A DNA stretch of 62,189 nt, filler included, from Aduncisulcus paluster (GCA_024181965.1; 8 parts of 8 records of this genome joined end to end with filler, not necessarily neighbours in it); one strand, 5' to 3'. Positions 7,830 through 46,018 are shown, counted from the first letter of the whole stretch. Notes: generated from the sequence alone by a model not told the origin. Made by a program: numbers and translations.

Positions 7830-10800
7830 ATGTCATTTTCGTGTACTCATCAGAAATCAGGGAGATTTGATTATCCTCCCATCATGAGGTTTGGATTTCA
7901 AGCTGCTGAGATCGATATTCTCGCTTCAACTGGAAAGTTTCCTTTTGGTCAAAATAACTCTTCTCTACATAATTGTCTTGGAGGAACAGAGAAATCTTGC
8001 TGCTTTGAAAATGTTCAACTCCCCTTTAAAGAACCATATTTTATTGAGAATCTATATCTTTGTTTTAATGGAAGGTCAGATCAACCTATTACTCTCGAGT
8101 TGAGCTTTACCACTGAAACTGGGGCAAAAATCACAAAGAGTGGTTACATATCACGCAAAAACTCTGGGGATAATTGGTATCGTTTGGATAATTTTGCTCT
8201 CACCGAAAAGGTTATTGAATGTGAGATTATCGTCACTTCAATGGCAACAAATTGTCAAGTACATGGCATTATATTTGGCTTAACTACTGCAGATTCGGCA
8301 AGAAAGACATCAGAATGGGAGAGTAAGGTGATCAATGGTACCTTCGTTCAAGCCTCTCAATATAATAGCCCTCCACATGCGTATACTGCTTCATCTGTTT
8401 CACAACCAGATAGTATTTATAGAGGGTCTTTTTATGGAAGTTATAATCAGAGTAATGCTCAAGAAGCCCTAACAGGTGATGGAAGTGTTGATTTCTACCG
8501 AATGCAAATTCACTTTGTTTCTCCAAGATATATCCAGCACATGTATATTAATGTGTATGGTAATGACCAGATTAAAGATGTTGAAGCCATTTTCTACTCT
8601 TCTACTGGTGTTAGAACTTCGAAATGTCTGAGAGTCAACACAACCAATTCTGGTCAGTATCAGTGGCATTCTTTTCCTGTCGACGTAGAATCTGTGATTG
8701 CTTGTGAATTGATTACAAAAACATCATATAATGGGAATCCATATGCCAGTGTCCAAGGATTATACTTCCTTGCTGATGCTTCCAAAGATAGCACATGTTC
8801 TTCTCTTCTCTCAACACGTGTTGCAGAAGGTGGAATTAAATCCCTTCTTATAAGGGAGTCTGAATATATTGACCTTTCCCTTGCTCTTGAAAAATCATAT
8901 TCAAAGTTCTCTTCCGTTCAAGGAGTGTATGCTCCAGGTCAAGATTTGGGTGATATTTCCAAAATGCTTCCATTCTTACAGAGTGGATTATGTTTTCATT
9001 CCCTCGAATTTGAATTTCATTCTCCCTTTTCTCTCTCGAGTATCCATATTTGTTGTAAAATCACTAATTATCAACCAAAATACCTTGATATCATCTTTAC
9101 TCTCGATGATGGCTCTTCTCGTATCCATAAATATGAGGTTGTTCCAAAGAGGAATTACAAGTATGAGTGGCACTCTCTTCCTGTTGAGATTGATCAAGTG
9201 GTTAAATGTGTAATTTCCCCTTGTCAATCTCATTGGAGTCTATTATATGGATTACAATTTGAAGATGGTGGACCATTGAAATCTGAATTACCATTTTACA
9301 GGACACTTTCTTTGTATAAGAACTGGAAACATCAATATTTTAATCCAGATGAACTCTGTGAGTTTGAAATTGGAGATATAGAAGTTTTTCCTGCTGAAAA
9401 AGAGGATTTAACCCTTGATATGCTTCAGGGAAAAGGTATTGCTGAATTTAAGAGTCTAACAATTCCCTTTTCAACTCCTTGTGATATTGTTGAGGTTTTT
9501 ATTCGCATTGACCGTGTAAAAAGAATTGGGTTTAAATTCTTCACTTCTGACAATGAATTTGAGATGATCTGTCAGAATAGAAATGAAATTAGAGGATATT
9601 ATTGGTTTTCTATTGAAGTAGGGATTGAGAAGGTTTTGTCTTGTGAGATATCTTGTTTGGATGAAGATGGCACTCTTTTATATCCTGCTGGAATTTGTTT
9701 TCTCAAGCATAGTGACTTAATTCATGGTATACGTCACTCAAAATCCGGGTTTTCTCCTTCTGATTTCCAAATACAAAAACATTTAGATTTTATTAAGGAT
9801 ATGAATACTCTTCCTTGTGAAATCACCAAAATACGAGGTAAATATTTGGGTTTTCAACCAAAATCTCGAATTCAAAAAGTTTTGAATGATAGTGGAAGGG
9901 TTCAATTCCAGAGCATTCTTCTTCCTTTCGTCTTTCCTCACACTGTCAATGGTGTGTATCTTTGTGTCCATGGAAATAATTCTCCAAGAGTATTAGTACT
10001 TAAATTATGGTCTTCTTCATCAGAGGAACCTGAGATAAGATATCTCAAATTTTCTCTCCCTGAAGAAAAAATGATAGAATGGCACTATTTCCCCATGTTT
10101 TTTAAAGATCTATCAAGATGTGAAATCTGCCATGAATCTTCTTGGGATGGAAGAGACTTCTCAACCCTGTTTGGAATCAAGTTCATTATGGACAAATATG
10201 CTGCTTCAATCCTCCAAGAATCCAAGACTCTATCCTTATTACAAGCCCTTTCTGAACAAGTTGATATGCGAATCAAAACAATGAAAAAGAAGTTTGATGA
10301 TGAAATTGCTATCAAATTGAAGGAACACCAAGATATTATTGACCAACAACAACAGTATATCAGTGAAATGGACTCTAAACATTCAAGATATCGAGATGAA
10401 CTTCTCCATGAAATCCATTGCGTTTCTGCACGTCAATCTGGTAAAGGGGTTAAAATTGACGTGTCTGTGAATAATGAATACAAGCAAACGAAGCAAAACC
10501 GTGATCGTATTTTTTCAGGATTATCCGAATTCATTGATATTGAAAAGATTCAAAATGGCATTTCATTGTTGTCTTCCTTCCCTCGTTCTCTTTGGCTTGA
10601 GCCATCCAAACAATTCTTTCTTTTTAACGTGTTGAGTTTCTTCTGTAATGTTCTTGACTTGCCGACAGAACTGGAGCAAACATTCTCATTGGAAGAATCA
10701 TCATATCCAGGAATCGCCTCCATTCATCACCGTATCCGTGCCATCACATGCGGTCTTTCCTCTAGTCCCAAACAGATCTGTGCCGATTGTTCCAAGGATC

Positions 10801-22409: not shown

Positions 22410-25400
22410 TCTCCTTCTTCAGATTCTCGTGGTGGTGATTGCACGATTGGAGCCAAAGGAATTGGAGGAGTCAATTTGATTGAATGCCACTCACAGCTGG
22501 AATCAGAATGGCATCGTTGGACCTGGACTTCTTTGAGGATGGATTTAGAATGGGATGGATCATCAAAGAATTGTAAATCATGTACGGTTTTAGAAACAAC
22601 TTTCTCAGTTTCTATTTCTATTTTTGGATCATCTGTATGAGGAGATTCATCAGGAGAGTAATAATTACACACAATATCAAGCTCTTTGGGTTGTTTCAGA
22701 CCTTTGGAAAGACACAAATATAACTCAGTCACTGGTTTGGGGGTCGGAAATTTAATAATGAGCTGAGAGAATTCAATGCAGCCATATCCACTCATAAATC
22801 TATTTTTAGATTCTTCATCGGTGTGAGATATTTTGAATCTGTCAAACTTATGGGGGAGGAGAAGAGGATGATCTTTTGAAACGAGTTTAGATGAAAGCAT
22901 TTGTTGAGAAATTGAAGAATGAAAAAGGTCATAATCCTCTGGAACATTGATGATTATGTTGTAATCGGTGAATTTGAGAACATGTGGATTAAAACGATTC
23001 AAAGGGGGATCGGTGAAGGGGGAAGTTCTCACAATCATCGATACATCAGCACGAATTAACCGTTTCTCATCATGACGATAGGATTTAAGCATTTGTTGTT
23101 GTTCTTTCTCACTAAAGGTCCCAGAATAGAACCGTATAGCGTATAATCGACACCAAGATAATCCACCCCACGACTCATCCGATATAACAGTACACTTGAC
23201 AACTCGGTCAATGCAGATGGGAATTTCATGCCATTCAAGACTTTGATTAATTCTATTAATAGAACAAACTTTCTCAATAATTCTACCATCCTCAGAGTGG
23301 AAATTTAAGCGAATTCTCTTTGGTTGATTTTCGTTTCCATAGCATTTGATGAACACAGAGGCGATGAATCTTGATCTGACTGACCGAGGTGTTGAAGAGA
23401 CGAAATCTGGAGCCATCATCGCGGAATCATGATCGTGAGCAGAAGATTTATCCGCGGCAAAAGGGAGAGAAATCTTATTAAAGTTAATTGGAGTGCTTTC
23501 TTCAAGGAATCCGTGGAGAGATGAAGCTCCCAGGCCCTTTGCATTCTTTGAAGCCCTTACTCGAGTCTTGTCAATCGAAATAAAATCTTTCTTCATAGAT
23601 ACTCCATCTCCTTCCTCAAATATGATCTCAGGGATTGGAATGGAGATATACGAAGAATCTATCAGGGGGTGGGCTGACTTGCGGGGAGTCACTGTATACA
23701 AGGAACCTGAGCTGGAACGAGAGGTTACACTCTCCTGGATTGAAGGCTCAGAACATTTCCTCAAGTGATGCCTTGTATGATGACAGGAGAGAGAAGACTT
23801 GTTCGATGTCATTGAAGGGGCATTAATCTGTGTGGTTGAGGAATGAGAATGAGAAAGTTGGGAGTGAGAAAGTTGGGATCCTTCAGATATTGAGTCCTCA
23901 GCGTGGGCTGATATCGGCAGGGGAGGGAGGGGGGGTAATGGGGAAGTTAAAGTGCTAGGGAGTTGCATTGAATGTGATTCGCTGGCTGATCTTCTCCCAA
24001 AATCCAAATCACCATAGATTTCATCATCCTTTCTCTCGGAATAGAACCTAAGTCCACTGATCACTGACCATTTGTTTCCACATACACTTCGGATACTTGA
24101 GATAACAACTCGCACAACTTTTCCAATGCCCGCGTGAAAATCATGTTCTTCTCTCCTGTCATCGATCATAACCTCGTGCCACCTTGATTGTCTATCATGG
24201 AATGTGGATATAAGAAGAGGAAAACGAAGGACTTCCCCATCACGAGTAATTACAAGTATATCAAGGTCTTTGGGACCGAATTGAGGGTGTTTCATGTTTC
24301 CAGCAATTAGAATGTGTATAGATGTGAGTGTTTGAGGGGTATCAAATGAAATCGAAAGGTCACGGAATGGAATTCCAGGAGATTCGGTGGAGAAATTCTT
24401 CTCTTCTTTTTTGAGAGATTGTTCTTCTTCTTCAAAGGCATCTTCAACATGATCTCTCTGCTCAAGCTCACTGGAGAAATATTGGCACGATGACAAAAGT
24501 TTCTGAGCATCCTCGAGGGAATAATCACAAGCAAATATAGTGAATTTTGAATCTATTTTTAGATTATCAATCGGTGTGAACTTGGAATAGGATGAAGAAA
24601 GATGAATGGCATCTGGGGTCCAAGAAGCAGGAAATATTACCTTACTTTTGCGTTGTTTCATATATTCAATCGTATGTTCTGAGATATTTGAAGGGTGAAT
24701 AATGGCAATGGATCTCAACTCTAAACTGACATTCTCCAAATCAGAGAAAATGGAAGAAGAGAGAGAAGAGGGAGAAGGGGGAATGTCTGTACTCGGCCAT
24801 AATGAAATGATCTCGATCTCAATATAAATGACATCATAACGACATTTAAAAGGGAGAATAACCATTTCGTCTGACCCAGGCTCTTTCTCAGAACTTGAGA
24901 CTCGGGACCAATTTTTGGGAAATCTAAATTTATACTCAAGTTTCTCACCTTCGATTCCACATGTGATATTTATATCTTTCGCACGTGTCTCACAAGCGTT
25001 AGAAATAGTCATAAAAATTCCACCAATCTTACAAGGTTTAAATAAAGGTATTTTGATCTTTGAGAAGGATATGTCAGATAATCTGGTAACGAAATTGAAG
25101 AACGAACTATTTTTAGATGCGTGTAACCCAGAAATAACACCAGAGCAGTGTGATTCATTGATCGAAGCAAAAGGGATCGGACATGATCTATCAAGTGCAT
25201 GTAACCATCGGAAATGAATTGGAACTTGGCGACTTTTTCCTTCCAATTCATCCTCAGCAATTACTATTCTTATGCCAGAGAGGGAAAATAAGCGAGAAGA
25301 CTCATCCCAACCTTCGGAAAATCCAATTTCGCATCGAACGATCGAATCAAGGTAAACGGGCAACGAATGCCATTCTTTTCCTTCAACACGAGGAAAAGAA

Positions 25401-25768
25401 TACGATCTTGAAAATATTTTCCCATCTGAACAACGGTGGAAATGGATTGTAGCCTCTTTGGGCTGGTTCTTTGATGACAAACAAAGTAATATGGATCCAA
25501 TTGCATGTGGTTTTGCTAATGGGAGAGAAATAAAGGAGATGGTAATCTCTTTATCTTCATTCAAGAATAATTCGAACTCGGATTTTGTTTTGGATGTTCT
25601 CGGAGCTTCTTTCTGAACTCGGATTTTATCTTGAGATTCGGGGAATGTAGTATTAACAACAGCTACATGCGGATCTGCACTAGGAAATGGAGGACCTTCC
25701 GATTCATCACTAATTTTGGATGATTCGATTGAGCCAGCAAAATCAACTACAGAACAAGAAGAACCCAT
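22410..25768 (-). CDS. Protein with a putative N-myristoylation/palmitoylation signal and at least five copies of the beta-rich module; 3'-truncated
   Basis: Starts MGSSCS (Gly2, Cys5, Ser6). Repeated motifs ISLPL..P..I.SI.LC, QPK, EWHSLPV...IV.CEI and LSGIRI are shared with the 7830 and 46018 genes. Confidence 0.85.
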
Positions 25769-26264
25769 TAATTATTCTTTTGTTAAGAAATTTTACGAAA
25801 AAAAACAATTGTATCTTCTCAAATAATTAAATTAGGTTGAAAGGTGGGTAAGATGGAGTTATCATTGGATATAGTTGTCACATACAATAAAAAATGATAA
25901 GAAATCAAATAAATGTTAAAATATTATAAAGACTAGTTGTAATTTTTGCAAGATTTGTTTGGATTGACCAGAAAAATCTGGATTTCGTTTTGGTTTTGTT
26001 GGGATGAATATGCTTTTAAAAAATTGCAGAATTTTAAATAAAATTGCAATTATTCGAGGGTTTCTTTTAAATTCATAAGTTATTCGATAATATAATATAA
26101 AAAAGAACGAGATAGCAAAAATTCAATTTTATTTTGGGAATTCGGGAGCAGATACAAGTGAACTGTCCAATTAAGTTTAAAGATGTTTTTTTAAGAAATA
26201 AATAAGTATGAGATAAGAAACAAAGTGAGTAAATCACGAACATTCACAAATCACAACAACAAGC

Positions 26265-27246
26265 TTAGGCACAGAGACCTGCAACAACGGAGGATTCAAT
26301 ACCACATTCGTTGTCACCCTTGACGATACGGAAGAAACCAGCTTCTCCCCAGTCAGTTCCCCAAGAGTTGGCAACAGTCCAGTACTTGGTGGAATCCTCA
26401 AGACCCCAACCAACAATCTTGATGGCGTGACCTCCCATGTACCAACCCCAGGTGTGCTCGTAGATACCATATACATACGAGTAGAAGTCTTGGTAAAGCT
26501 GGAAAGAACCCTCGACGGGACCATTTGTCATGATTTCGGTTGCAATTGCAGTCTCGTCAGCATCTACTCTATAAACAGTAGACGCCTGATAATAGAGCAA
26601 ATCGGAGCTATCCTTACAGACTTTCGGACAGCCAACCTCTCTTCCATAAATATATGTATTATCATCGTAAGGGTAACACTCATCAGTAACGGTACCAGTG
26701 GTCCTCAAAAAAATCCATACAAGGTCAATGCTACCTCCATTGCAGCCATCATTGGCTGTATCACAAGAAATGAGGTACTCGGGAGAAAGTTCAATGAAAT
26801 TGGAACCACGAGCGATAGCACAACGGTCAGAAAGAACTTCAGAAGCACCAAAAGCCCAGCAACCACCACATTCACCTTGGTCACGGATACCTCCAATAAG
26901 TCCAGGCCAGGCGGTGGAGGATTCGAAGGATTCAGGAAGAGCATCAGCAGACATGAAGTGACGCTTCACGGGAAGGGCAGGACGCTCAGTGGAAGTACGG
27001 AGGATTTTCTTGGCTTCAGAAATAGTCATACCCCTGAAACGGTCGTACATCTTGGCAGTCCACTTGGAGTTGCTGGCGTTGTGCTCAGCAATCTTCTCAG
27101 CAACCTGGAGGAGAGCAGTATCAATGGCACCGATGTGGTCAAGGTCTGGAGTACCAGCAGTAACATTACCCTCAATACCACACTCGTTAACACCCTTAAC
27201 AATACGGAAGTAACCGTCTTCTCCCCAGTCAGCTCCCCAGGAGTTG
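26265..27246 (-). CDS. CTSB: Cathepsin B-like C1A cysteine protease, last unit of an in-frame tandem; 5'-truncated
   Basis: Catalytic motifs DQGECGGCWAF, GGHAIKIVGWG and VANSWGTDWGEAGFFRI. The frame extends 65 codons upstream of ATG 27050 to the contig edge and contains a second protease C-terminus. Confidence 0.95.
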
Positions 27247-27346: not shown

Positions 27347-30300
27347 CTTGTTCCTTTCCTTGTGCTGCGAGTGGTATCACTAACAGCACCAATCTCCTGA
27401 GTTTTGACACCAATGGATCCGACTTGTCTCTCGTGGAATGACACAGTACCCTTCTTTGAAGGTGGAGAAAATTTCACTCCAACCATATGAGGCCCTAGTT
27501 TCTTTGAAGACCCATCTTTCCTTTGCACTCGCTTCGCTTTCCACTGTTTTTCCCACTCTTCGCGTTGTTTGGCACGTTCTTTCTCCATATAAATGTCTCG
27601 TTCAATCTCTCGCATCCTTAGGCGGGTTTGATGATCAGATCTGAATGGGTTAAGTCCTGAATTATCAACGGGGCCGATCGTCCGTATCTTTTTCCCTATA
27701 GCCTTATTTTGGGCAGAATATATTTGTTTATCGAGATCTCTTTGAAGTGTGGCCAAGAATGGTGAAGTGGTGACAACAGGACTCCTTCTTTGCGTCTGGG
27801 AAGTAGGGCCCTCTTCACGTTCCAATGGGAGCACGTGCCCTTCAGAAAGTGAGGGATTCTTCTTCACTGGAGCAAGATCACAACTGTACTTGATGCCTGA
27901 ATCATTCTCTGTATCTTCAGCTTTTTGAGATAATGATAATATCCTGTCTTGCTCCTCCTCTTCTTCTTCTTCTTCTTCCTTTGAGAGTTGTTCCTGTCCT
28001 TGATATTGAGGTAAGCTTGATTCGGCAATACTGTGACCTAATCTCTTATGTTTATCAGACATTCTAGAGTGCCATACAAGGCTCCGTTGTAGGATACGAT
28101 GCCTCCATCGTGATACTGACTTTTCCATCCATTCTCTTTGTTCTCGCAAACCCAATAATCCTTCCATGAGTTGGAAATTATTCATAAATAACAAAATCTC
28201 ACTAGTTTGGGGGAAATCTGAAATAAACCCGAATCCACGGGAAGGAACAGCAGCTTCTGTTCTAAATTTAGCCATAACCCCATCAATATTGGCCCTGTGA
28301 CTGAAATTCTTAGCCTTTCCGCCCTTTCCTTGTCTAGGGTGTTGAGAAAAAACAACTTTGGAGGGAGATCTCACAGGAGGGGATCTTATCGAATTTGGGC
28401 TTGAAGAGGAAGGCGAAGACATCTCTCGTAGACTTCTGGGTGGAATCATATATTCTTTCATAATTTCTGCATCACCGCCACCCTGAACACCAATCCTCGC
28501 GCTTTTCTTTGCATTTTCACTCACAAACAGATTGCAAGAATATCCTTGATAATGGTGATGCTGTAACATTTGTTTCACAAGACACATTGAACGCACAATG
28601 GGACAAAGATAACAAGATATAAGACGTTCATGAACTGGAGATAATAATACTTCCTCACAACCACACTCTCCTTCTTTTCTCTTAGTTGAGAGACCGACAG
28701 AGCTCAGTGGGACTGAGAGCAGGGATAGTAAGGAAGAAATCGAAGGAATGCATTCTTTGAGACATGAATGGGCTGCTGAAAGATGGGATAGCATACATAC
28801 ACGACGATCTTCGACAGATGAAGGGGTTGATAAGAAGTTGGAGAGTGCCACCGAATCCATCTGAGACCAAGGCAAGGTACCTTCACCATGAACAACCTTT
28901 CCATCACGTAGTATGTGAGATATTCTCGATTGGTGTATTGGAGATTTCGTCGGTTCCTCTTCAGAAATCGAGTCCTTTAATCTATGACTTGCTTGCTCAG
29001 GTTCTTCTTTTTCTTCTTCGTTATTGGATATATCATCACCTTTCCTTTCTTGTTTCTTTTGTTGAGATTCCTCTTCTTCCCCTTCTTTCAGTTTCTGGAG
29101 TTCTTTCTCCTGCTGCGCTTTAAACTCTGGTCTTTGTTGCCCTGCCTCTTTCTTTCTCTGCAAAAGCCAAGAAATATCGTCAATAAACATCGAGCTGAGT
29201 GGAACTCTGTTGAAACGTCCTGATAAATGCTTTATAGCGCCTGTATACGTCATGGATCTTTGTTCGTGCACATTCTGGGCAGCAATATACTTACTGAAGG
29301 TCTTAAGGGCAGGCGAGGCACTGTTTCCGATGAATAGCCAGATATCCTGTTGGATATAGTTATATTCAGGGGCCATTGGAGGAGGATTCGTATCTTTTCC
29401 AGCACCATCATAGTGCACTGGTGAAAATGTTGACGAGGAATTCTCAGAGAAGGACACAGAACCACCTCTTTCTCGTTCAAGGGGATGGGACTGGTCAATA
29501 GAACATGGGGGCGTGGGAACTCGTTTGAAATCAGAGTCGGAAGTTGTTGTTGTTGATATACAATTGCCTCTTTCATCGCGTTGACTAAAGGGAGAGGAAG
29601 AGAGAGCAACAGCTGGGGTAAATGGGTCAAACACATGCTCTTCATCTTCTTCAATCGCTAGTTCTGAACAGACAGAGACAGATGTGACTTCGTGAGTACT
29701 AGCATCTTGTGATTCCATGTTAGATATGGTGGTGCTGAAGGCCTGGTCTCCAAGATCTGTGGAAGTGGTAGAGGTCGTGCACTGGAGTGCATCGGGTATC
29801 TTGTGTTCTTCGGCATCATCAGAGAACACAATACCAGAAGAATGTTCCAAGGACTCGGATTTCTTGGTTCTTGACGAACAAATGGCAGATACTGAAGGAT
29901 TTCTTTCCTCGTCGCATTCCTTGATAGAGCGTAGATTTGACCGGGCTGTCTCCGAGGAGTCTAAAAAGCCATGACGAAGATGTACCGATGTAGCAATTCC
30001 ATCAGTGGCGAATGAAAACCGACGAAGGGGGACAGAATGGGAAGAATCTGTGAATTTGGGAGAGTGTCTAGTCGTTCCGGGTGGAATAACTTCCATTATG
30101 GGTTTATCAATAACTAGAGACGGGGTTTTTGGAGATGAAATTGAAGGTAGAGGGTGCGTAGTTGGCATATGTTGATAGTAAGACTCAGAAGCACGCCGTC
30201 CAAACAAAGCTCCAGATGGAACATATTCTGAAGACTTATTCGTTTCATCTTTTAAGGTATGGCTCCAATATGGTGCAGATATTGACAAAGGAGTGAAAGT

Positions 30301-30819
30301 TAGTGCGATTTGGGCCACAAATTCCGATATTGTATTTGTGGGAGCCATATGAGTTTCTTTAGGGGATCCATATGAATCATCACATGAATCAGCAACATCT
30401 TCCGACTCAGAATAGGTTGGACTCATGGCAGCTCCAGAACTAGATAAGGATTCAGGTGATGGATCCATTTCGAAGTGTAAAGGTGGAGAAATGGGTTCAT
30501 ATTTGGAATTATACTTTGAAAGTAATTGCTTAATATTTGAACTTTGTGTATTTATGCTCTTCTTACGGAAAGTATGAATAGCAATGAGAGATTTATCTTG
30601 GGTAATATTATCTAAACATTCAGGGAAGACGGCACGTGAGACCTTAAAATCCTGAACTTTACCAGTGTTATCTGATTGTGAAATATCATCATCTTGCTTT
30701 GGTTCAACTAAAAATAATGTGATGGCCGATTTGAACGATATTTCAAGAAAATCACGAAGCAAAAATCGTCTCTCTGTTCTAAATAATTGCGGAGATTCAA
30801 TAGATGTGGATTTGCTCAT
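27347..30819 (-). CDS. Large Ser/Glu-rich, mostly disordered hypothetical protein; 3'-truncated
   Basis: Uninterrupted ORF of more than 1150 codons, first ATG at 30819. I recognise no domain. Confidence 0.75.
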
Positions 30820-31110
30820 CCAAAAATCCACTTAATTGGTTATTTCTCGACAAAAACGCAAAAAAATTACATTTGGGTTTATTGAGAAAAATGTCGGGGA
30901 AAAGCTTATTGATATGCTGTTTTTCCAAAATATATTATGAAATAATTGTCAATATTGAATCATTTTTTTATATTAAGCATTTTGTGTTTTTCTTTCGCCA
31001 ATACTGGAGGTGAGAAGATGAAACCGTTTTTTATAATCCTCATTGAAAGTTAATGTCTTAAATATTTTATTATTGAATATCTTTTACCTGATACGATTTC
31101 AATTCGGTGT

Positions 31111-31622
31111 TGTAATCAACTTATGATGTTGTGATAATATTATAATCCTCTTTAGTCAAAAAGTTTTATCCATTGAAACATTTAATTGGGTTTATTGATT
31201 CTTTTTTTAATTTTTTTTTAAATCTTCACTGTTACGTGATTTTTGATAATATTCGACGGTTGTTGTGATATTTTATATCTATATAGATTTTAAAATGGTT
31301 TCCCTATGTAAGTTATGGCAAATATGCTTTATTAAAATGTTTTTGGTTGAAAACATNNNNNNNNNNNNNNNNNNNNTGTAATCAACTTATGATGTTGTGA
31401 TAATATTATAATCCTCTTTAGTCAAAAAGTTTTATCCATTGAAACATTTAATTGGGTTTATTGATTCTTTTTTTAATTTTTTTTTAAATCTTCACTGTTA
31501 CGTGATTTTTGATAATATTCGACGGTTGTTGTGATATTTTATATCTATATAGATTTTAAAATGGTTTCCCTATGTAAGTTATGGCAAATATGCTTTATTA
31601 AAATGTTTTTGGTTGAAAACAT
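31111..31622. repeat. Gap-flanking duplication (31111-31356 = 31377-31622), assembly artefact
   Basis: The same 246 bp occurs on both sides of a 20-N gap. Confidence 0.9.
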
Positions 31623-31725: not shown

Positions 31726-34700
31726 ATGAATAATTCAAAAATATTTCGTCGATTTCAATTAGATACTGATGAGATAAAGACGTTTTCATTATTTCTTTCG
31801 ATTTGCAATAGAAAGACAGTATATAGACGACAAAAATGTATTTTAAATCGTATATATCCTACAATAGTTTGTATATTTAAGAAGAATACCGATATTTTCT
31901 GTAAGATATACAAAGATTTAAATTTAATACTGAATATTTTCCCAATTTTACAATCATTCTCCCACCATTTTTATACTTCCAGTGACATCTTTAAATCTAT
32001 CGGTTATCTGGTTGGAATGGATTATTTTAGTTTCATTCGACATTCTTGCTGTTCTTCAAGTTGGTTTCACTGGATAGTTTCAAGATTATCACAGGAAAAT
32101 CTCTTATTTATTCTAAAACATTATTCCAAAGCGAGTTTATATGCGGTTTATTCTGGCAATTGTATTTTTTTGAAAAGATATCTTGTCATTTTGAAACATG
32201 CCAGCTCTGAATCTCTTGGATTGTCGGCCATATGCTATCAACTGTGTCATAATCAACTTTTTTTCATTGAAGTATCGTCATCTCAGACGCTACAGTATCT
32301 TTCTACTGACAGGGTCCTTGTGTATGCTCTAACATCGATGTGGACGAGGTCCGAGGATGTTATAAGATATCTAAATGAAGTCATATCAAATCCAAAGCAA
32401 TCAAAATACTCATTCAACAAAGTCTTTGTCTCTCTTCAAATCTTGAGCACGGCTGTGAGCAAAATGAACGGCCAGGATCGTTCGCTTGCAGCCAAAAGAC
32501 TTATACATTATCTTGGCACAAAGCGAAGTATTTTTTGCAAAATATTTTTGGGTGGAATTTTCGTTCAGCAACACTCGAAGGCAGATTATAGCCCCGATTT
32601 ACTTTCAACTGTCCAAAAACGATTTTCAATCGATCTGCTCAGTCAGTATTTCCACGATTATTTGGATTATATCTCGATAAGTATTGCTTCAAAGAAGCAA
32701 TTCAGATCGGATGATTGGTTTTTGCAACAATTATATCGCATAATTCAGGTTATTCGAAATGGACAATGTGATTGCAATATTTGTGAACGTTTTGTCGAAA
32801 TTGTAATTTCTGTGATCTGCCAACGCATTATTTTTCATGAATTTGAGGAACGAATTCTTGAGAAACTAATATTTGTTATTATGTCGAATGATAATTGGAA
32901 ATATCTTATCTCAAACCCTTCGGGAAGTGTGCTCAAGTTGCTCTTTATTACATTGATATCTCTTGCTTTTGCAATCACAAAGTCTGATTCGTCGCAATTT
33001 CATGCTTTTGATGGTATTATGGTTCATGAAATTAATTCTATTTGTTCACAATTATCTCCTTTTCCCTTCATCCACTCTGGAATTCTGTTTTCTCTTCATC
33101 TCTTACAAGCATCAACCATTTATATTGAATTTTGTTGTGCAATCCCAAGTTTTATTCCATACATTTTTGATGGTTTGTTCAATATTTGCACTCAACTTTT
33201 GGCCTTTCTCTCGTTTTCAAAGCTCCATAGTGTTGCATTTGATGCAATTATTGATATTATCAAGCGATGTCAGTCTGAGGTAATTAAAACGAAATTCCTT
33301 TTGCTCTTTTTCAAAATTTGCTCCTTTTCAATTTCTCTTTGTAGAAAGGATCCCTTTGTCTACGTGAACCCTCTCATATTCTACGAATTATCCTCTTTAA
33401 TAACAAATGAGGAAATTCAACTCTCATTATTTGCCGTGATCAATACATGCACGGTGTTTTATCCTGATAACAAGCGCTGGAAAGAAGTCATGTTTGAGCT
33501 TGAAACTGGTCCAATCGGATCGCTTTTCGATATTAACACACTTTTGAATGCGTATTATGACCAATTATTGTTACCTATATTTAGTTGTTCGGATGATTAT
33601 AAAGATTTCTGTCTTCTCGTTACGAAGAGGAACCCGCATTTCAACTCAGCCAAACAGAAATCCCACATCTTAATGGCGATATTGGCAACATATTATTCCA
33701 TTAAAGAGCGTAAGAAATACAGAATGACAATTAATTTTTTTTCCAAATGTTTGTTTCTCATCTTCCAACGTATTCAAACCAACCTTCAGGATATTATTCA
33801 GAACTGTGGGAAGGGAACCAAGAATAATGAAGAAGATTCCGATTTTATGATTGTTCTTAATCAATATCTTATTGATCTATTTTTATATTTTTCTGAAATT
33901 TTCATCCAGTTTCCTCAATTATCCATTTTTTTTGGTGAAGGTCAATATTTTGTCTTCCAACTGTTTGAATTAATGAAAGAAGTTGGTTTCTTATTTAGTG
34001 GACAAAAAAAAATTGTTGACTGGACAATGTCCGTCATTCAGCATATTTTCCAGCTTATATACGTTCACCTCCATGAACAGTCATATGATAAGCCACAATG
34101 TGACCACGAACAGTGGCGATTGAATGTAGAATTTTGTTCCCAAGTGCTTGAGCTCATATTTTATGATCATTTAGGATGTCTTCGACAACATAATCATCAT
34201 CTTCCTTCAGAATCGATGATTATAGTCTTATCAAAGCATCGGAAAAGGGCACATCATAATTTAATACCTTCTCAATCGGTTATTTCAACAAATAGATGGG
34301 GAAATTATCGCAATTTACTGGTAAAATTTGTCAAGACAGTGGAATTGTTTTCTTCAAATGATAAGAAGTTCCAAATCCAAACTTTTTCTCCAGATTCTTG
34401 GACGTTGACACCGATATGGTTCCAAAACATTATTGGACATCGGTTTTTTGTTCCAATTTGGTGTGTTATTGAGAAACTTTGTTCCTTGATCATCACTGGA
34501 AAATCTCACTCTAAACAAACACATTTTTTTATTGATTGTGTTCGTCGCCTTTCGATAATCATTCTCTTTTCATTGAGTTTGTTTAATTCTCCTTCTGCCA
34601 AAAATATTTGTTTTGTTCCGATGTTTCCTCTTGTTGGTGTTTGTCATTTCTGCACCGAGCTTATCTTAAAAGACACAAAAAATCATGAATTGAAACGTAT

Positions 34701-37700
34701 TATTTGGAAAGTATTTCTGAATTGTTTCAATATCATCCAAAAACATTTCTTTGTTGATCCTTCTCTCGGTGAAGAATCGCTGGATAAACATAATTTACAT
34801 CTCCAAAGCTCTTTCAAAATATGGTGGGAGAGAAAGTTTGAAAAACTATTCCCAAAATTAGTTTCTCAAATTCTATTTTCGAGTGAACAATATTCAGCCC
34901 TTACCATTCATTTCTTTTCGTATGCTTTTCAAACTGGGTTTTCTATTCCTCATGAATGCAAGATTGTGTTACATTTCTTTGCTCTCACAAATCAAGGATG
35001 TGAATGTTTCCTTATTCCAGAATTGGAATGTAGACAAACTTTAAAGAATCATGAGAGATTAGTTGTTGAGAACCTTGATCGATTGATTTCTATTACAATG
35101 AACCATTTTTCATCCATGATAGACGGTAGCATTGGCGAACGTGTGTTATTTGAGCATCCATTTGTCAATAGTTTTTTTTTACAGTTTGCAAGACGTTTTA
35201 TAATTAACCTGGGTCAATCTAAAATATTTCTTGACCCAATCGAAGACTTGTCAGTCCCGATATTTCGAAAGTTTTTGAGGAAAAAATTGGATTGTGCTTT
35301 GGACATTGTGAGTTGTATTCTCTTTCCGAACGAACCCACTTTCCAATCAAAGGAAACGTACATGTTGAGTTTCAAATTTATGGTTCTTTCATCAATTTTT
35401 ACCAGTTTTCCTGTGTTATTGAAGCCTAAAAAGAACTTTGTTGATGAATTAAGAGCCGTATCAACCATATTTTTCCCAAATTCACTGATATTTTCGATTT
35501 TCCGTGAAATGAATATGCTTGGAAGAAGAACCAACACCGATGAAAATGGTATTACTTCGCTTTTCCCAACGAATTGTATCCTTTTAAATTCAATTAAGAA
35601 TGCGTATTGTAATTATGTTGAGAATGGACGATCTTACGTTCAGATTTCAGGCATATTAAAACGTGGAGTGTGTCCATTCATTCAAATATTCTGCAGATTA
35701 CTTTCGAGACTGTTATGTGAACGAGAAAGTGGAGTTTGTCGGAAAAAAGATATTTTCTTGTACAATATTCTGAGATACTTTGTAATTAATATTTCTTCAA
35801 GAATAATTCATATTGGAATTATTGACACAATTGTATTTTTCCTCCTCAAAATTGCAATCAGGAAATTTTACTCTTCATCGACTGAATTTTATGCCAATTT
35901 GAGTTGTGAAGGGAGCTTGTTTCCTTTGTATGGCAAACATACTCCCCCTTCTTCCATGAAAAAAGACCTTTCTTTGTCTCCTCCTTCAAAAAAAATGACA
36001 GTTTGCCCATTGGATTTATCGGATCTCTTTATTTTACTCAACTTATCTCTCAAAAAGAGTGAAAATCTATTTGTCTCCTTTCCTCTTGGTATCTCTTTCA
36101 TAATATGTATTATTTCTGCGCTGTTATCTATCCCAACTGTCACGAACTTACCTCTTTCTTGTGATTCTTNNNNNNNNNNNNNNNNNNNNATTGCAATCAG
36201 GAAATTTTACTCTTCATCGACTGAATTTTATGCCAATTTGAGTTGTGAAGGGAGCTTGTTTCCTTTGTATGGCAAACATACTCCCCCTTCTTCCATGAAA
36301 AAAGACCTTTCTTTGTCTCCTCCTTCAAAAAAAATGACAGTTTGCCCATTGGATTTATCGGATCTCTTTATTTTACTCAACTTATCTCTCAAAAAGAGTG
36401 AAAATCTATTTGTCTCCTTTCCTCTTGGTATCTCTTTCATAATATGTATTATTTCTGCGCTGTTATCTATCCCAACTGTCACGAACTTACCTCTTTCATG
36501 TGATTCTTACTTCCTTGGAATCAGATTAATTCAAGATCTGTTGCAGATTTTGTCAAACAATTCAAAACTATCTCAGCTCTCTCAGGGGAAAACGATTCAA
36601 AGTACGGATACAAGCAAATCTATCCAATTGTTCCAGGGAAAATATACGAAATATCTGCCATTTTCTCGCAGAATGAGTATAATTCATGAACGACTGGACG
36701 AATTTGATCTCAAAAGGTCACTCTCCAATTTTCGTAAATTCGTTGGGTTTGCGGTTAAAAAGGCGCCCCAAAAAGATATTCATATCTCAAATTTTTATTT
36801 ATTTATGTTTTATGATGATTTTTGCGCACAATACACGGCATTTTCCCCTTACTATTGGTATCACATTACTTCTGTCTGCAATGATGAAAAAGCTTTGTTA
36901 TCACTTGCTTATTTCAACTCTCACACGAAAGATAGTATCATTTTCAAGGAAGGAACGGAAGAATACCTCTCTTTAGTTCGATCTTTACATGAAAAGCCTA
37001 ATATTCCTGCAGCCAAGTTACACGGTGTGTTTGCACTTATTCCTTGTGTTAAAGTTTTCCCTAATTTAGTTGTAACATCAGCTCAAATTCAATGGATTTT
37101 CTATGAGATTTTTCGATTGCGAGGCCCTTTTTTCAAAAACCTCAAAGTTCAATGTTTTCGATGTTTATTCCACCATTGTTCAAAGTCTTTCAAAGAAAAT
37201 TTACCTTTTCATAAATATGAACATTTGCTTTCAACCAGATGTGTGAGTAATTGTTACGATTACGTTAATTCTTTGTCTCGATTCCATTTTACTCATCGAA
37301 GCTCATTTTCAACGGTCGAATCATTCCTCTTGCTTATTTCTTTGAATCATATCCTCACAAAAGTGAAACTCACATGGGGTGGGCAGAAAACTTTTCACAA
37401 TGGAAGAACGCTTGTGGAACTTACTTTTGCCCTATTAACTAAGATTCTGCCTTATATTGATTCAGAAAGTTTTCGCCTGCCATTCATTTATTCTATTATT
37501 TCTCTTTCTTTTTTCTTTCTGTTTGTTGACTATTCTTCTCATATAACTCCGAATACATCTCTTAATATGGTATATAACATCAATAAGGATAAATTCCCTG
37601 CATGGTCATCCAAACATTTTGTCCTTCGTACAATTCGTCAGGCTGGGACCATATTATCATCTCATTCTCTTCAAAATTCCTCTTGTTCTCACTATATGAC

Positions 37701-37971: not shown

Positions 37972-38071
37972 NNNNNNNNNNNNNNNNNNNNNNNNNNNNN
38001 NNNNNNNNNNNNNNNTTAATTAATTAANNNNNNNNNNNNNNNNNNNNNNNNNNNNNNNNNNNNNNNNNNNN

Positions 38072-38654: not shown

Positions 38655-40369
38655 TTGAAATATATCCATATTTATAAATGTTTCAGGAGCCAATCTGCAA
38701 GGTTGAAAAATAAAATCACTGCCCACAATCCCCGAGTAATCGCCAAACATCTCCAAACAAAGAAACACTCAGAAAAATTCTTTAAAAGATATTTTAATCA
38801 ACATTTATTATCCGCTCAATTTAGAAACATCCATGAAAAGTTGGTAGAAAGGTGTGATTCATTAGGTATTTCAGTTGGCATAATTTCAAAGCTATTTTCT
38901 CCCGATATATGCGATCTAATTCAAAATTACCCAGGACCAATGAAATTTTCAAGAAGCACAAGCTATAGAATTCAACAAGAAAGCCTGATAAAAACTGTTA
39001 ATGGCCAGATAACTAATCGGCCCCCGCCACCGTATTCCCTACTTCTTGATAAGTATAAATCAGGTTCAAAACATTTGTTAATGGTAATGTTAAAATCATC
39101 AAATATTTACTTGGCACTGGATTATGTAGATCTGGAGATGATCCAACGAGATCTTGAAAAGGCCAGATTGGCACAAATTGAGACGATCCAAACGTCCCGT
39201 GAAATTTTGCAAAAAGATGAAGAGGAGGAAGATGAGGAAGAAGAATCAATGTCAAATTCCATTGTCATTAATCGATCATCCTGTCTTGATGATATCACAG
39301 TACCAAGAGAAGAAATGGTCAAAGGCATAATCAAAATCTTAAATAAGCATAATATTCAGAAATGTCATATATCAGCGATCATTACTGATAGGGAAAAGAT
39401 CATGGTGAGTATTGCTAACCAGTTGTTATCTGAAGGCTATGGATTTGTAGTTACCCATTGTTCTGTCCATATTGTTAATATTATAATAAGGGAATATTTA
39501 TTGTTTAAGATTCCTGAGTATGCAAAACTCTGCAATAATGTTACCAATTATTTTAGCGTTCAAAAACCCGCTCGGTATGAGGCTCAAAAAATATTGAAGA
39601 TCAATATCAAAAATTATACACCAATCCGTTGGTCGAGCGCGATAGAAACTTTAAATAATATACACGAAAATTTTGAAAAATATAAACAAATTTTTAAATT
39701 TATGGCCGAGAGTTCACAAAAATCTACGTTAATTAGGTATTTCAGTGATAAAAAATTACAATCAACATTATCTTACTTAGCAGCGCACTTTTTCCCTTTA
39801 GCTCAAAAGATTATAAATCATTTACAGTATAATTATCATGATTATAAGATTTATTATGAATTGGATTCTTTTGTTAAGGCGTTGGAAGGAAGGCTTGGTG
39901 GAAGGCAAATTAAGACACGACCATATACGGATGCACTTTATTATTTAAAGAAAAATCTTAATTTATATTATTTATTTCCATATTTTACCCCCGAATCATG
40001 GGATTTCAGGAGAAGGGTTGACATCGAAAAAGCCCGAGTTAGTTTTGTCAACATCATGAAAGAACCAAGGAGAATAAGATATGACTTGGAGAAATCTTTC
40101 TTAAAATATATTGTATTATTCAAGCATTCTAAAAACTAAAAAAGGCACTGTTAGATAGTCCTGACATTTTTAGGAGACATTTTCCGGAACTTGATAAATA
40201 TCGGAAGATAATTCAATCAATCCCATTTTCAGGATCAGCGATTGAGCGATTTTTCAGTATTGTTTCATATATTAATAGTTATAGAAGGAGACACCATTCA
40301 ATTAAGACTTTGATGCTTGAAAGTCAACAGGATTATAATGCGAAACAATACCAACATCAACAAGAATAA
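38655..40369 (+). mobile_element. hAT-superfamily DDE transposase gene, frameshifted near 40133
   Basis: LLLDK (Asp1), IITDRE (Asp2), HCSVH (CxxH) and TPIRWSS lie in ORF 38655..40139. The Glu motif FPEL...IQSIPFSGSAIERFFS lies in the -1 frame 40133..40369. No terminal inverted repeats were identified. Confidence 0.85.
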
Positions 40370-41012: not shown

Positions 41013-41103
41013 TAGTATAATAGATCTTGTGGTAATTCATAAATTTAGACCAGTCCTCTTTTGAAAACCTTGTTAGAAAAGGTGGTTTTAATAATTCGGC
41101 CAT
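41013..41103 (-). pseudogene. Possible remnant of a gag-like N-terminus
   Basis: MAELLKPPFLTRFSKEDWSKFMNYHKIYY resembles the PP-x-L...W..F...Y pattern at the start of some retroelement Gag proteins, then decays into AT-rich sequence. Weak. Confidence 0.2.
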
Positions 41104-41918: not shown

Positions 41919-42102
41919 GCTTTTTGAAAATTTCTTTTTATTGGATACACTTTTTATTGGATTTAGAACAAATAATTTTTTTGTTGTTCTATTTTTAGAA
42001 TTCTATTTTTAGAAATCACTTTTTTTATTTACACTATAACCTTTGTAATATTCATTAGAATCCGATAATTCGAATTACTTAAGGAGATAGAATAATTTTT
42101 AT

Positions 42103-43055: not shown

Positions 43056-43155
43056 NNNNNNNNNNNNNNNNNNNNNNNNNNNNNNNNNNNNNNNNNNNNT
43101 TAATTAATTAANNNNNNNNNNNNNNNNNNNNNNNNNNNNNNNNNNNNNNNNNNNN

Positions 43156-44803
43156 ATTGGTCTTATTCAAAAAAACCTTTGTTGAAGGTGAATATAGAGA
43201 TCTTCCTTTTCACTTTGAACAACGTTATAAAAAGCAGCGTATCACAGATGGAAATAATGTCTATCAGTGGATAATTCATAATACTCTATCTCTTGTATTT
43301 TTAATTGCCTATGATAAGTCTCTTCCAATCGAGCAGAGAGTTTTCGAAAATTTTTTGAAGAATCTCGTTAATCATTTCATTGAATCTCATGAGGAAGATG
43401 TTAAATCTATTACCAACAATCATGATGTGTCCAAATTGGACAAAATTCAGTCTTCTCTTGAAAAATACTTGTCAAGTATGTCCAAGCCAACCAAATCTAA
43501 ATTTAGATCTGATAAACTTCATGCTCGAGATTCAGGATCAACAACAGCGTCCCCTTCTAGTGTGAGCACTACTGATATTCGAGAAAGATTAGCGGCTCGA
43601 AAGAAGGTGAAAAAAATCACCGGGCAGAAAACTGCACCAAAAGCATGGGAACAAAAGAAATCTTCCAAAAAGGAGAGTCCCAAACCAACGGAAGAGGAGT
43701 TACTCGATCATAGTGCCGATAAACGTCGGCCAAAAGAGGAAGAAGAAGTGTCCACTGTTGGATCTTCCCCAGCCAGTCTATTTTCCCCGGTTGTAGAGGA
43801 AGAGAAAGAATCGGGACCCTCTGTATGGGGAAAGATCTTCAGCACCTTCACTGGTGGCCGAGAAATGACTGCTGCTGAACTCGAAGAAGTTCTTTCAAAG
43901 CTCAGAACCAATTTGGTGAGCAAAAACGTTGCTTCTAAGGTTAGTGATGACATTTGCCGATCTGTTAAGAGATCTCTTGTCAAAACAAAGAAACCCACAC
44001 TCTCCTCTGTTCGTGGTATTGCTCAAAAGGCCCTTGAACAGGCTGTAAAACGTGTTCTTATGAGTGACCACACTCCAGATGTCATTTCAGAGGTTAGAGC
44101 TGCTGCCACTGCCATGAAACGAGGTGATAGGTCGGAGCCCTACAAGATTGTTTTTGTTGGTGTGAATGGTGTTGGTAAGTCGACCACTTTGGCCAAGGTC
44201 TCTTTCTTCCTGAAAGAACGTGGTGTTTCCCCACTCATCGCTGCATGTGATACCTTCAGAAGTGCAGCCGTGGAACAGTTAAGGAAGCACAGCCGTGCTC
44301 TTGGAGTGGATGTGTATGCTCGTGGATATGGTAAGGATCCAGCTGAAGTTGCATCGAGTGCCATTCGTGCTGCTAAATCTGCAGGAAAAGAGTGTGTTCT
44401 TATCGATACTGCCGGAAGAATGCAAGGTAACCAACAATTGATGGTTGAACTTGCCAAACTTGTGACTGCTGTAAAGCCAGAGCTGGTTTTATTCGTTGGA
44501 GATGCTTTATGTGGAAACGATAGTATTGACCAATTGACCAGTTTTGAGAAGACCCTGGGCGAATTCTTCCCAAAAGAAGCCATGGATGAAAGAGAAAGAT
44601 TGGGGCTTTGTGGATCCAATGGAAGGAAAGTCATCAATGGAATTGTCCTTACGAAATTCGATACAATCGGAGACAAACCTGGAACTGCCTTATCACTTGT
44701 CTACCAGACGAATGTCCCCATTGTGTTCGTTGGAGTCGGACAAAGGCATGGTGATCTCACACAACTTGATGTGAAACGGGTCACAGCAAGTCTTGTTTTG
44801 TAA
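43156..44803 (+). CDS. SRPRA: Signal recognition particle receptor alpha subunit; 5'-truncated
   Basis: N-terminal longin-like SRX region, charged linker, and NG GTPase motifs GVNGVGKSTTLAK, ACDTFRSAAVEQL, DTAGRMQ, TKFD and VFVGVGQ..DL. Confidence 0.96.
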
Positions 44804-44869
44804 GATGTGCGAAGAATTTAGTAAATGTTCCTTTTTTTCATTCCTCTCTGTGGATATTAGTAATATCTA

Positions 44870-46018
44870 TTACTTTGATGTGAATACAAGGGAGTAAATT
44901 GAAAAAACTCGGCTGTTCCTTTGATCCCATTGACCTTTTCCTTTAATTTCACACAACACGACATCAGACAAATCAATAGAAAGATATTCCCATTGATAAT
45001 TGTCTTCAGGCATTGCAAATTTATACTTAATGGATGTCTTCTTGCCATCTGATTGAGTGAATTCAAAGAGAAGAGAAGGTGAACTGAAATACGCATTCAC
45101 ACAAATATATGCACCTTTCAGAGGGCTAGGTGATAGAAAAGGGATAGAAATATAGGAAAAAGCAATGCCGTCACCAAATTTCATCTCTCCTTTTAACATT
45201 TTCTGAGCCTTAGCACTCTGATCATACCCCTCAGATTCCTTTCTCTCTGATTCATCTCTCGCAGTGACCAGAGAAGATGAAGTCATAACGATTGAATCAT
45301 CACTCAAAGTAGGCCTAGATTTGATCCCTCCTATTTTTACAAGCTTAGATTCCACCGATAACTAGCAACAGAAAAGGGTTGTGAAAAATAGATATAAGAA
45401 ATATCAATTGACTCAATTGAAGAAAAAAAGACCATATAACAAACGTACAGCTTCATGCCACATCTTTTCGAAAATCAATTCTTTGGATTCACGGAGAGCG
45501 GATTCTTCAGGAGTTTCTTCTCGGATGAAAACAAGAGAATGGATATTAAAACACGATTTGATCCTTCCCATCCCTTTAATCTCGCATAAAACAACATCAG
45601 ATAGGTCAATTGGAAGGAAAAACCAGTTAGAGCATTTTCTATAGCGAAAATTAAATCTTTTGGATATCTTTTCTCCTTTTGACGAAGAAAAAGTAAATAC
45701 AAGATAGGATGGTGGAGCAGAATCCTTGTTGAGACAAATATAAGCACCTTTCATTGAATTTGATTGAGAAAATGGAATTGAAACAGATGTAAAATATTCA
45801 TAATTTCTCTCGCCTTTCATCATTTCTTGAGCAGATGAACTCTTATCAATATCTTTGCCACTTCTATCCTCTGTTTCATCTGTGGCCGAAATATCTGAAA
45901 AAGATAGATTGTTGAGAACTGTGGGATCATCTCGAGGAATAGGAATGCAAGAAATGTCACCCTCATTAACAAACACAGCAGATGAAATTTCCACGCTTTC
46001 AAATTTTAAATGACTCAT
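44870..46018 (-). CDS. Two-exon gene (46018-45449 + 45361-44870), 353 aa, made of two tandem copies of the beta-rich module
   Basis: An 87-nt phase-0 intron at 45448-45362 (GTACGT...TGCTAG) joins KMWHEA to LSVESKLVKIGG in frame. Both halves share AQ(E/K)M(M/L)KGE, SIPF...KGAYIC, W.(F/Y)L.IDLSDVVLCEIKG and I.SLVF. Confidence 0.88.

Follow-up and report, generated by a model that had tools for sequence, protein, structure and literature searches.

Binding repeats coupled to kinases have a precedent in the Fornicata. The Giardia expansion of NEK kinases and ankyrin-repeat ('21.1') proteins is a very large lineage-specific cytosolic family of this group, and its repeat occurs both fused to a kinase and free of one; that repeat is the helical ankyrin, and many of its NEK kinases are inactive. 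The receptors DDR1 and DDR2 combine a signal peptide and a single extracellular DS domain with a transmembrane helix and a tyrosine kinase. In the F5/8 type C domains, a disulfide joins both ends of the domain, and the ligand site of these domains and of CBM32 is made of loops at one end. PMC5222566 places the ligand site of APC10 and IFT25 likewise in loops at one end, and describes a common surface for protein-protein contacts in the intracellular members of the fold (APC10, IFT25 and the Cep104 N-domain). DOC domains serve as protein-recognition modules inside large enzymes. Here we analysed a stretch of 62,189 bases (the window), which consists of eight contigs of Aduncisulcus paluster (Fornicata) separated by runs of N. 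Three of its genes, here called g1, g2 and g3, carry twelve copies of one domain with a predicted galactose-binding-like fold, and this domain belongs to a large family in which about a fifth of the proteins also carry a Ser/Thr kinase.

The sequence-only reading of the window had proposed that an unnamed module recurs twelve times in three genes on three of the eight contigs. Profile searches of the window open reading frames (ORFs) confirmed this, giving exactly 12 copies, of which five are in g1, five in g2 and two in the small, spliced gene g3. The count of three contigs in eight is also literally correct, as the N runs delimit eight contigs. The copies can be aligned, and a MAFFT alignment of the 12 stretches reproduced the consensus that had been read by eye (F..IPF..P..I...YIC......QPK.L...F...DG....WH..P.....VV.CEI.....W.......GL.F). 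The 12-copy profile, searched against 683 six-frame ORFs of at least 40 residues, found only the 12 copies, and the next ORF had an expectation value (E) of 0.1. This test is circular, so profiles were also built from the copies of one protein at a time. Each of them matched both other proteins with full-sequence E values from 6e-8 to 6e-57. With the g1-only profile, E was 1.4e-51 for g2 and about 1e-14 for both g3 ORFs; with the g2-only profile, it was 6.2e-57 for g1 and 7e-12 and 6e-8 for the g3 ORFs; and with the g3-only profile, 1.7e-31 for g1 and 1.1e-13 for g2. No unrelated ORF did better than E 0.19. A profile from the two copies of g3 alone recovered five copies in g1 and five in g2; in the cross-validation, the g3-only profile saw just two of the five g2 copies. 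Some single copies were weak in these tests, such as the second copy of g2 with the g1 profile (independent E, i-E, 0.087) and the fourth copy of g1 with the g3 profile (0.036). The identity of the module between g1, g2 and g3 is only about 20%.

The gene g1 (7830..13542, + strand) matched ADUPG1_008901 of A. paluster (P0003) with 100% identity in a protein search. It encodes five discoidin-like units, a long K/E/Q-rich region and a C-terminal Ser/Thr kinase, and the public model has 1,900 residues and a short extra upstream exon. Its core copies lie at 7977..8300 (i-E 2.6e-31 with the 12-copy profile, which is the one meant unless another is named; 4e-8 with the g2-only profile), 8466..8780 (7.1e-34; g2-only 1.6e-10), 8967..9272 (1.8e-32; g2-only 1.8e-15), 9420..9713 (1.3e-25, the weakest of the five; g2-only 0.0011, g3-only 0.036) and 9879..10196 (3.2e-33). 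The long central region gave weak coiled-coil-type matches in Pfam. The kinase domain (12640..13542, + strand; Pfam PF00069, E 2.8e-33; motifs HCDLKPQN, DFE and APE) begins beyond a scaffold gap at 12616-12635. The flanks of this gap (12329..12922) carry 287 nucleotides that are 100% identical on both sides; they are an unmerged overlap, which artificially duplicates about 96 codons in the public model.

The gene g2 (22412..25768, - strand; ADUPG1_008906, partial, P0010) has five units and is truncated on its 3' side, where the contig stops. No recognised partner domain was found in it with Pfam. The core copies are at 25253..25567 (i-E 8.3e-31; g1-only profile 2.7e-14), 24734..25093 (5e-21; g1-only 0.087; a divergent copy with a long insertion), 24032..24394 (1.1e-28; g1-only 5.2e-8), 23117..23461 (1.1e-33; g1-only 3.5e-19) and 22460..22798 (1.6e-22; g1-only 1.9e-4), all on the - strand. 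The last one is partial and divergent, covers profile positions 1-90 of 105 and adjoins the contig end. The open frame from the ATG at 25768 begins with MGSSCS, which is a motif of the N-myristoylation plus palmitoylation type. The public model begins with MISYHFLLYNCFF instead, using tiny upstream exons (window 25720-25960, - strand), and this public 5' start looks like a doubtful prediction.

The gene g3 (ADUPG1_008911, P0223, 353 residues, - strand) had been read as spliced, and this holds. Exon 1 (45449..46018) encodes a complete unit of 190 residues with its core at 45515-45823, and exon 2 (44870..45361) encodes a second unit of 163 residues plus the stop, with its core at 44873-45187. 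Between them is an intron of 87 nucleotides (45362..45448, GTACGT...CTAG) with an in-frame stop inside. The splice is supported because the intron has GT and AG ends (GT at 45448, AG at 45363-45362), the two-unit paralog P0057 aligns colinearly with the spliced protein, and the sum of 190 and 163 residues equals the annotated length of 353. ADUPG1_008911 also covers all of exon 1 at 100% identity.

The module had been described as about 90 residues long. This was right for the core sequence but not for the size of the domain, as the core is the C-terminal two-thirds of a conserved unit of about 170-185 residues. In the first 152 family proteins, the start-to-start spacing of successive modules peaks sharply at 160-190 residues. 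An alignment of 307 units indicated that the approximately 70 residues before the core are likewise conserved, with the consensus VKPEF..GD..IPIPRDDP.II.P.FS.VK.KDD..KES..YDQS..AQ.MLKGE leading into the core. AlphaFold2 modelled the core alone, taken from the fifth copy of g1 with a 12-row alignment, with a predicted local distance difference test score (pLDDT) of 89.0 and a predicted template modelling score (pTM) of 0.80. The 190-residue unit of g3 exon 1 with a 38-row alignment reached pLDDT 93.2 and pTM 0.86, and no residue was below 50. In this full-unit model, the sandwich is preceded by a predicted N-terminal hairpin and a short helix, and it is followed by a C-terminal helix (residues 170-189), which would link successive units. 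According to the models, each domain has about 140 structured residues within a repeat unit of about 170-185 residues that ends in the linker helix.

Structure searches with both models led to the same superfamily. For the core model, Foldseek against PDB returned IFT25 (E 1.5e-3), APC10, F5/8 type C, the DOC domain of HECTD3 and the discoidin domain of muskelin, and the VIA-align Z scores were 11.0 for the F5/8 type C structure 3nng, 10.8 for muskelin, 10.4 for HECTD3 DOC, 10.3 for IFT25 and 10.1 for APC10. With the full unit, the best Foldseek match was yeast APC10/Doc1 (1gqp_A, E 1.3e-4), among 12 matches at E 1e-3 or better. VIA-align gave the CBM32 domain 7jnb_A at Z 13.4 (140 residues aligned, root-mean-square deviation (rmsd) 3.5), followed by BF3416 (12.0), the CBM32 domain 2v72_A (11.6), another CBM32 (11.3), IFT25 (11.1), 3nng (11.0), APC10 (10.9), HECTD3 DOC (10.8) and HERC2 DOC (10.6). 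These superpositions aligned 117-140 residues at rmsd 2.4-3.5, and model residues from about 31 to 167 span nearly the whole of the 130-150-residue targets (2v72_A 2-138 of 137; IFT25 1-134 of 132). As the Z scores are above the stated VIA-align background (typical best Z 7-8) and all top rows are from one superfamily, we regard the fold, a complete galactose-binding-like beta-sandwich of jelly-roll topology, as established by the modelling. APC10/DOC, F5/8 type C and IFT25 had all been guessed from the strand pattern, and all three are among the top structural matches.

The sequence itself did not lead to a described family. The window proteins gave no F5_F8_type_C, CBM32 or ANAPC10 match in Pfam at E 1 or better, and 38 family members gave no F5/8C, CBM32 or ANAPC10 match at E 5 or better, with no family matched by more than one member. 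The 12-copy profile against all PDB sequences returned a single match, at E 1.5, to an unrelated chain. A look-alike search of the ESM Atlas with the full unit gave a best score of 0.83, below the level that is meaningful for the tool. By these comparisons, the sequence family is previously unnamed and the fold itself is known.

The comparison with the described domains showed both likeness and difference. F5/8 type C and CBM32 domains are the best structural matches, and their size is similar once the N-terminal extension of the A. paluster unit is included. In contrast, they have no sequence match to it, and they are mostly secreted or extracellular, whereas the A. paluster members are without signal peptides. 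The terminal disulfide of F5/8 type C has no counterpart in the A. paluster units, whose two conserved cysteines (present in 77% and 92% of units) belong to strands in the middle of the domain and not to its ends. The APC10/DOC domains (APC10/Doc1, HERC2, HECTD3 and CUL7/9) have the same beta-sandwich (VIA-align Z 10.6-10.9, 122-154 residues aligned) and, like the A. paluster family, are intracellular and without signal peptide. They differ in sequence, as the 38 members had no ANAPC10 match, and in context: DOC occurs once per protein in ubiquitin ligases, whereas the A. paluster domain occurs in up to 14 tandem copies with a kinase partner and with no cullin, HECT or RING domain among 151 scanned proteins.

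The earlier inference of a large genome-wide expansion was also upheld. A search of 1.84 billion representative proteins (50% identity clusters) with the 12-copy profile gave 181 matches at E 1e-3 or better; 138 of these reached at least 1e-10 and 77 at least 1e-30, and a single protein had as many as 14 copies. A full-unit alignment search of proteins of 74-529 residues gave 120 matches, 105 of them beyond the earlier set. The pooled set has 257 distinct proteins with 609 modules, from 1 to 14 per protein; one module is present in 51 proteins, two in 145, three in 23, four in 18, five in 11 and six to fourteen in 9. A word-indexed homolog search of longer proteins with the 12-copy alignment, a tool of low sensitivity, returned the two window proteins only. 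The lineage restriction that had been supposed was seen in every match with a known source, about 140 in number: all 20 sampled from the 150 listed of the 181 (top, middle and last ten) are from A. paluster, and so are all 120 shorter matches (119 from NCBI and one from the EukProt transcriptome of the same strain). Three members are present in the transcriptome-derived EukProt set, and therefore at least some members of the family are transcribed.

Kinase-fused and free forms had been claimed, and both exist, the two-domain free proteins being the commonest. Pfam scans of 151 proteins recognised a kinase (Pkinase, cutoff E 1e-5) in 40 of the 150 representatives that were listed, and also in P0004. 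With a family kinase profile made from 12 family kinases, a kinase was found in 52 of the pooled 257. In 49 of these 52 proteins the modules precede the kinase on its N-terminal side, in one they stand on both sides of it, and two are ambiguous. The motif H[RCG]D[ILV]KPxN is kept in 40 of the 52 kinase segments, and DLG, DFG or DFE follows within 40 residues in 37 of the 40; the 12 segments without the catalytic motif are mostly kinase fragments at a protein end. As the catalytic-loop and DFG-type motifs are mostly kept, the fused kinases look catalytically competent. The main kinase type (for example, P0007, P0054 and P0107) has HRD[IV]KP[DEN]N and then DLG in place of DFG, usually no recognisable APE ([AGSP]PE in 7 of 40) and large inserts, and it is a divergent, possibly lineage-specific clade. 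The best PDB sequence matches were phosphorylase kinase, CaMKII and Aurora for the g1 kinase (E about 1e-15) and PAK and RIPK1 for the P0107 kinase (E about 5e-7). NEK was absent among the 60 listed PDB matches for either of these kinases, a comparison of sequences only.

Other partner domains were rare. Among the 151 scanned proteins, single cases were found of PARP (P0006), LRR (P0041), thioredoxin (P0067), NYD-SP28 (P0032) and DUF5679 (P0014), and a second thioredoxin-bearing member is P0217. P0006 has 3,335 residues and carries a PARP catalytic domain as well as a kinase. P0032 has an N-terminal dynein-regulatory-complex domain (NYD-SP28, E 3.1e-14), with which its source name agrees, and this fusion may be a merged gene model. 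HECT, cullin, RING, H-type lectin, transposase and reverse transcriptase domains were not found in the Pfam scans of the 151 proteins.

The kinase architecture has a known counterpart in the DDRs, where a discoidin-fold domain is likewise N-terminal to a kinase in one polypeptide, and the DS domain of DDR1 was among the structural matches. The A. paluster proteins differ in having no signal peptide or transmembrane helix, in their tandem arrays and in the Ser/Thr-type catalytic loop HRD[IV]KPxN. The discoidin-kinase architecture is an independent invention and not homology with the DDRs. Tandem arrays of up to 14 domains before a cytosolic Ser/Thr kinase, beside amplified two-domain paralogs, are undescribed in the literature searched. 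The genome announcement (PMC9933649) has no mention of the family or its architecture, and none of the papers listed by full-text literature searches on the organism gave an account of the family, its size or its architecture.

The absence of signal peptides, which the sequence-only reading had also stated, was seen across the family, as an N-terminal hydrophobic stretch was found in one of 152 proteins (P0124). A hydrophobic 19-mer above threshold was present in 11 of the 152, mostly within beta-strands or kinase motifs, and the hydrophobicity scan of these proteins found no transmembrane-like segment between the modules and the kinase in the kinase-bearing members. Because signal peptides and transmembrane segments are essentially absent, the family proteins are predicted to be cytosolic, in agreement with the sequence-only reading, and a secreted or receptor form was rejected for the same reasons. 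The view that the g2 protein is membrane-anchored was not sustained. It has no transmembrane-like segment, so that a transmembrane anchor was rejected; the acylation-type N-terminus MGSSCS is the sole candidate anchor, and its start codon is uncertain. A start of the form MGxxx[STAGCN] is present in 12 of the 139 Met-starting members, several with a nearby Cys, where the rough chance expectation is 3-4. A Cys at position -4 occurs in 7 of 152 against about 4 expected, which is marginal; five or six of these resemble CaaX boxes (P0065 CTIV, P0103 CDIM, P0108 CTVV, P0116 CCIV, P0148 CCAQ and P0107 CTGV). A minority of the members may thus be lipid-anchored, and nothing else speaks for the membrane-anchored form of the sequence-only reading.

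The two-domain paralogs are closely similar to each other. In 74 two-unit proteins of 330-400 residues, the median pairwise identity was 70% with a range of 44-85% (300 pairs sampled), which points to a recent burst. One two-unit member, P0249 (ADUPG1_006404), has the UniRef name 'LAGLIDADG homing endonuclease' with no Pfam domain recorded, and this name is probably spurious. Variation within the unit was concentrated in certain loops. On the numbering of g3 unit 1, the loops 72-77, 97-104, 124-130 and 151-158 have a mean of 2.49 bits of information, compared with 3.62 bits in the tight turns (85-88, 113-116 and 139-142) and 3.76 bits in the strands; the difference between the variable loops and the turns gave p 0.003 (Mann-Whitney). 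Since alternate connections in an up-and-down sandwich share one end, the variable loops should form one face of the sandwich and the conserved turns the other. The loop variation fits a diversified binding surface, of which it is no proof.

Taken together, the data suggest that this is a lineage-specific, expanded family of cytosolic binding domains of the discoidin/CBM32/DOC type, coupled to kinases in about a fifth of its genes, and we put the probability of this reading at about 0.55. We propose that each domain is a binding module whose ligand contacts would be made by the variable loops at one end of the sandwich, as in the structural relatives. Roughly one gene in five has an array of 1-14 domains N-terminal to a Ser/Thr kinase with intact motifs, and multivalent binding by the array would position or regulate the kinase. 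Most of the other genes encode soluble two-domain, and so presumably bivalent, proteins, which would serve as adaptors or decoys for shared ligands. By analogy with the intracellular members of this fold, which act in protein binding, a protein ligand is favoured over a glycan or a lipid. What the data show is the repeat with its fold, the expansion in one species, the order of the domains and the absence of secretion signals, whereas binding by the loops, the type of ligand and a link from binding to kinase activity are inferred.

Several points weigh against this reading. The fold is common to lectins, lipid binders and protein binders, and it does not choose the ligand. Kinases are lacking in 205 of the 257 proteins, and the kinase of g1 (HCDLKPQN, DFE) differs from the main type (HRD[IV]KPxN, DLG). 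The placement of the variable loops at one end was deduced from the strand connectivity and not from coordinates; these loops are longer as well, and in every family long loops are the more variable. The restriction to A. paluster is a sample result, since about 114 of the 257 pooled proteins fall outside the set identified by name and 150 of the 181 matches were listed; the small number of sequenced close relatives bears on it too. Because many gene models are partial in this assembly (N50 4.6 kb, PMC9933649), both the kinase share and the copy numbers may be either too high or too low.

The alternative that survives best, possible though rather doubtful in our judgement, is a cytosolic lectin repertoire directed at glycans of bacterial prey or of invaders escaping the food vacuole, in which the two-domain proteins would be bivalent lectins, and the fusions with kinase, PARP and LRR domains would be signalling receptors. 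Such a repertoire would be a form of innate surveillance. Carbohydrate-binding modules are the best structural matches (CBM32, Z 13.4, 11.6 and 11.3), the commonest architecture is bivalent, with two modules in 145 of 257 proteins, the variable loops lie at one inferred end, and PARP (P0006) and LRR (P0041) occur as rare partners. A. paluster is a free-living, bacterivorous, microaerophilic fornicate that is kept with food bacteria (PMC9933649). There is also a precedent in a bacterivorous protist, since bioRxiv 10.64898/2026.06.18.733164 reports the cytosolic, discoidin-fold discoidins of Dictyostelium as sensors of bacterial surface glycans, and discoidin I (2w94) was a structural match to our core model at Z 8.7. 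However, the same preprint assigns the recognition to the H-type lectin domain, which accompanies one discoidin domain in each protein, and not to the discoidin domain itself. The A. paluster family has no H-type lectin domain in the 151 scanned proteins, and its sequences are unrelated to the Dictyostelium ones at the HMMER level. Moreover, the Pfam scans gave no sequence match to CBM32 or F5/8C models, PARP and LRR were each found in only one of the 151 proteins, and cytosolic members of the fold are mostly protein binders (PMC5222566).

A broader form of surveillance, which we consider unlikely, would be a diversified germline-encoded repertoire of cytosolic receptors, with at least 250 genes and 600 domains, whose loops would bind non-self ligands and which would signal via the kinase, PARP and LRR fusions. 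If this were so, bacterial prey, escaped contents of the food vacuole or viruses would be recognised, and a free-living metamonad would have an independent surveillance resembling innate immunity. For the ligand or pathogen sensing suggested in the sequence-only reading, the variable loops at one inferred end and the rare PARP and LRR partners are the only hints.

That the domains bind membrane lipids seems a good deal less credible than the favoured family of cytosolic, probably protein-binding domains. They would then dock on acidic phospholipids in the manner of the C domains of factors V and VIII and, together with lipid anchors at the N- or C-terminus, hold kinases at the cytosolic face of membranes. 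The F5/8 type C match (Z 11.0) is consistent with this, as is the last variable loop, in which a conserved Trp has basic flanks (GKG.W..K..R; W in 82% of occupied positions). The MGxxx[STAGCN] starts (12 of 139 against about 3-4 by chance), the MGSSCS of the g2 ORF and the Cys at -4 (7 of 152 against about 4 expected) could be read in the same direction. Against this, S, P, K and E are abundant in the loops, which seem to be without the paired hydrophobic spikes of lipid-binding C domains such as those of factors V and VIII, and unit 1 of g3 and its subfamily are without the Trp. The acylation motifs are in a small minority of the members with modest enrichment, and the start of g2 is uncertain.

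It is quite improbable that the units are structural or cytoskeletal repeats, building blocks of the flagellar and feeding-groove apparatus with the kinases as incidental regulators. The ciliary protein IFT25 and the Cep104 N-domain have the same fold (for Cep104, PMC5222566), P0032 carries the N-terminal NYD-SP28 domain, and the long region of g1 gave the coiled-coil-type matches. The flagellar domain was, however, found in only one of 151 proteins, possibly through a merging of gene models; structural components would not usually show so recent an expansion, with about 74 or more soluble two-domain paralogs at 70% identity, and nothing was found that ties the family to the cytoskeleton. Finally, the very improbable explanation that the expansion is inflated by assembly redundancy, by fragmented gene models or by a repeated or mobile element carrying the two-domain gene could draw on the fragmented assembly (25,863 contigs, N50 4.6 kb, BUSCO 40%; PMC9933649), the many matches labelled partial and the 228-345 nucleotides of identical sequence that flank all six 20-N gaps of the window, but the matches come from 90% and 50% identity clusters and are distinct sequences (the 74 two-unit proteins have a median of 70%, 44-85%), several members have separate locus tags on shared long contigs, the modules of the window genes share only about 20% identity, g3 has ordinary genes as neighbours (one of them SRP-receptor-like, the other a Ser-rich ORF), and no transposase or reverse transcriptase domain was present in the 151 proteins.

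The rest of the window contains other genes and several assembly features. Its six 20-N scaffold gaps (6603-6622, 12616-12635, 31357-31376, 36170-36189, 58112-58131 and 58284-58303) all have 228-345 nucleotides at 99.7-100% identity on both flanks. These duplicated flanks are unmerged contig overlaps, from which artificial duplications arise in gene models. Upstream of g2 on the same contig is a cysteine protease of the papain family (26265-27050, - strand; PF00112, E 2.9e-58). An SRP54-type GTPase with an N-terminal helical bundle (43157-44803, + strand; PF00448, E 1.7e-52, and PF02881) is convergent with g3, and its product looks like SRP receptor alpha. Seven long ORFs of 414-1,481 residues had no Pfam family at E 1e-4 or better (16086-19883, 19813-22309, 27347-30831, 31726-36169, 38655-40139, 46654-48546 and 14063-15307); the one at 46654-48546 is Ser-rich with a single hydrophobic segment.

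The draft genome of A. paluster, which was grown with food bacteria, has 29.4 Mb in 25,863 contigs with an N50 of 4.6 kb, 15,316 predicted proteins and a BUSCO score of 40% (PMC9933649). The at least 257 proteins of the family are about 1.7% of this protein count, and their domain is in no family library; a name for the fold would give hundreds of 'hypothetical proteins' an annotation at once. As lineage-specific domain expansions are common in protists, a new fold or a new mechanism would have been the greater surprise. In its logic, the family appears to come nearest to the Giardia NEK/ankyrin expansion, with which it shares the design of kinase-fused and free forms. The repeat and the kinase are different: the A. 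paluster repeat is a predicted beta-sandwich, the best PDB matches of its kinases are PAK, RIPK1, CaMK and Aurora, and the catalytic motifs are mostly kept. The A. paluster family would thus be a second system of 'binding repeat plus kinase' in the Fornicata, independent of the one in Giardia, and what such systems sense is open to comparative and biochemical tests.

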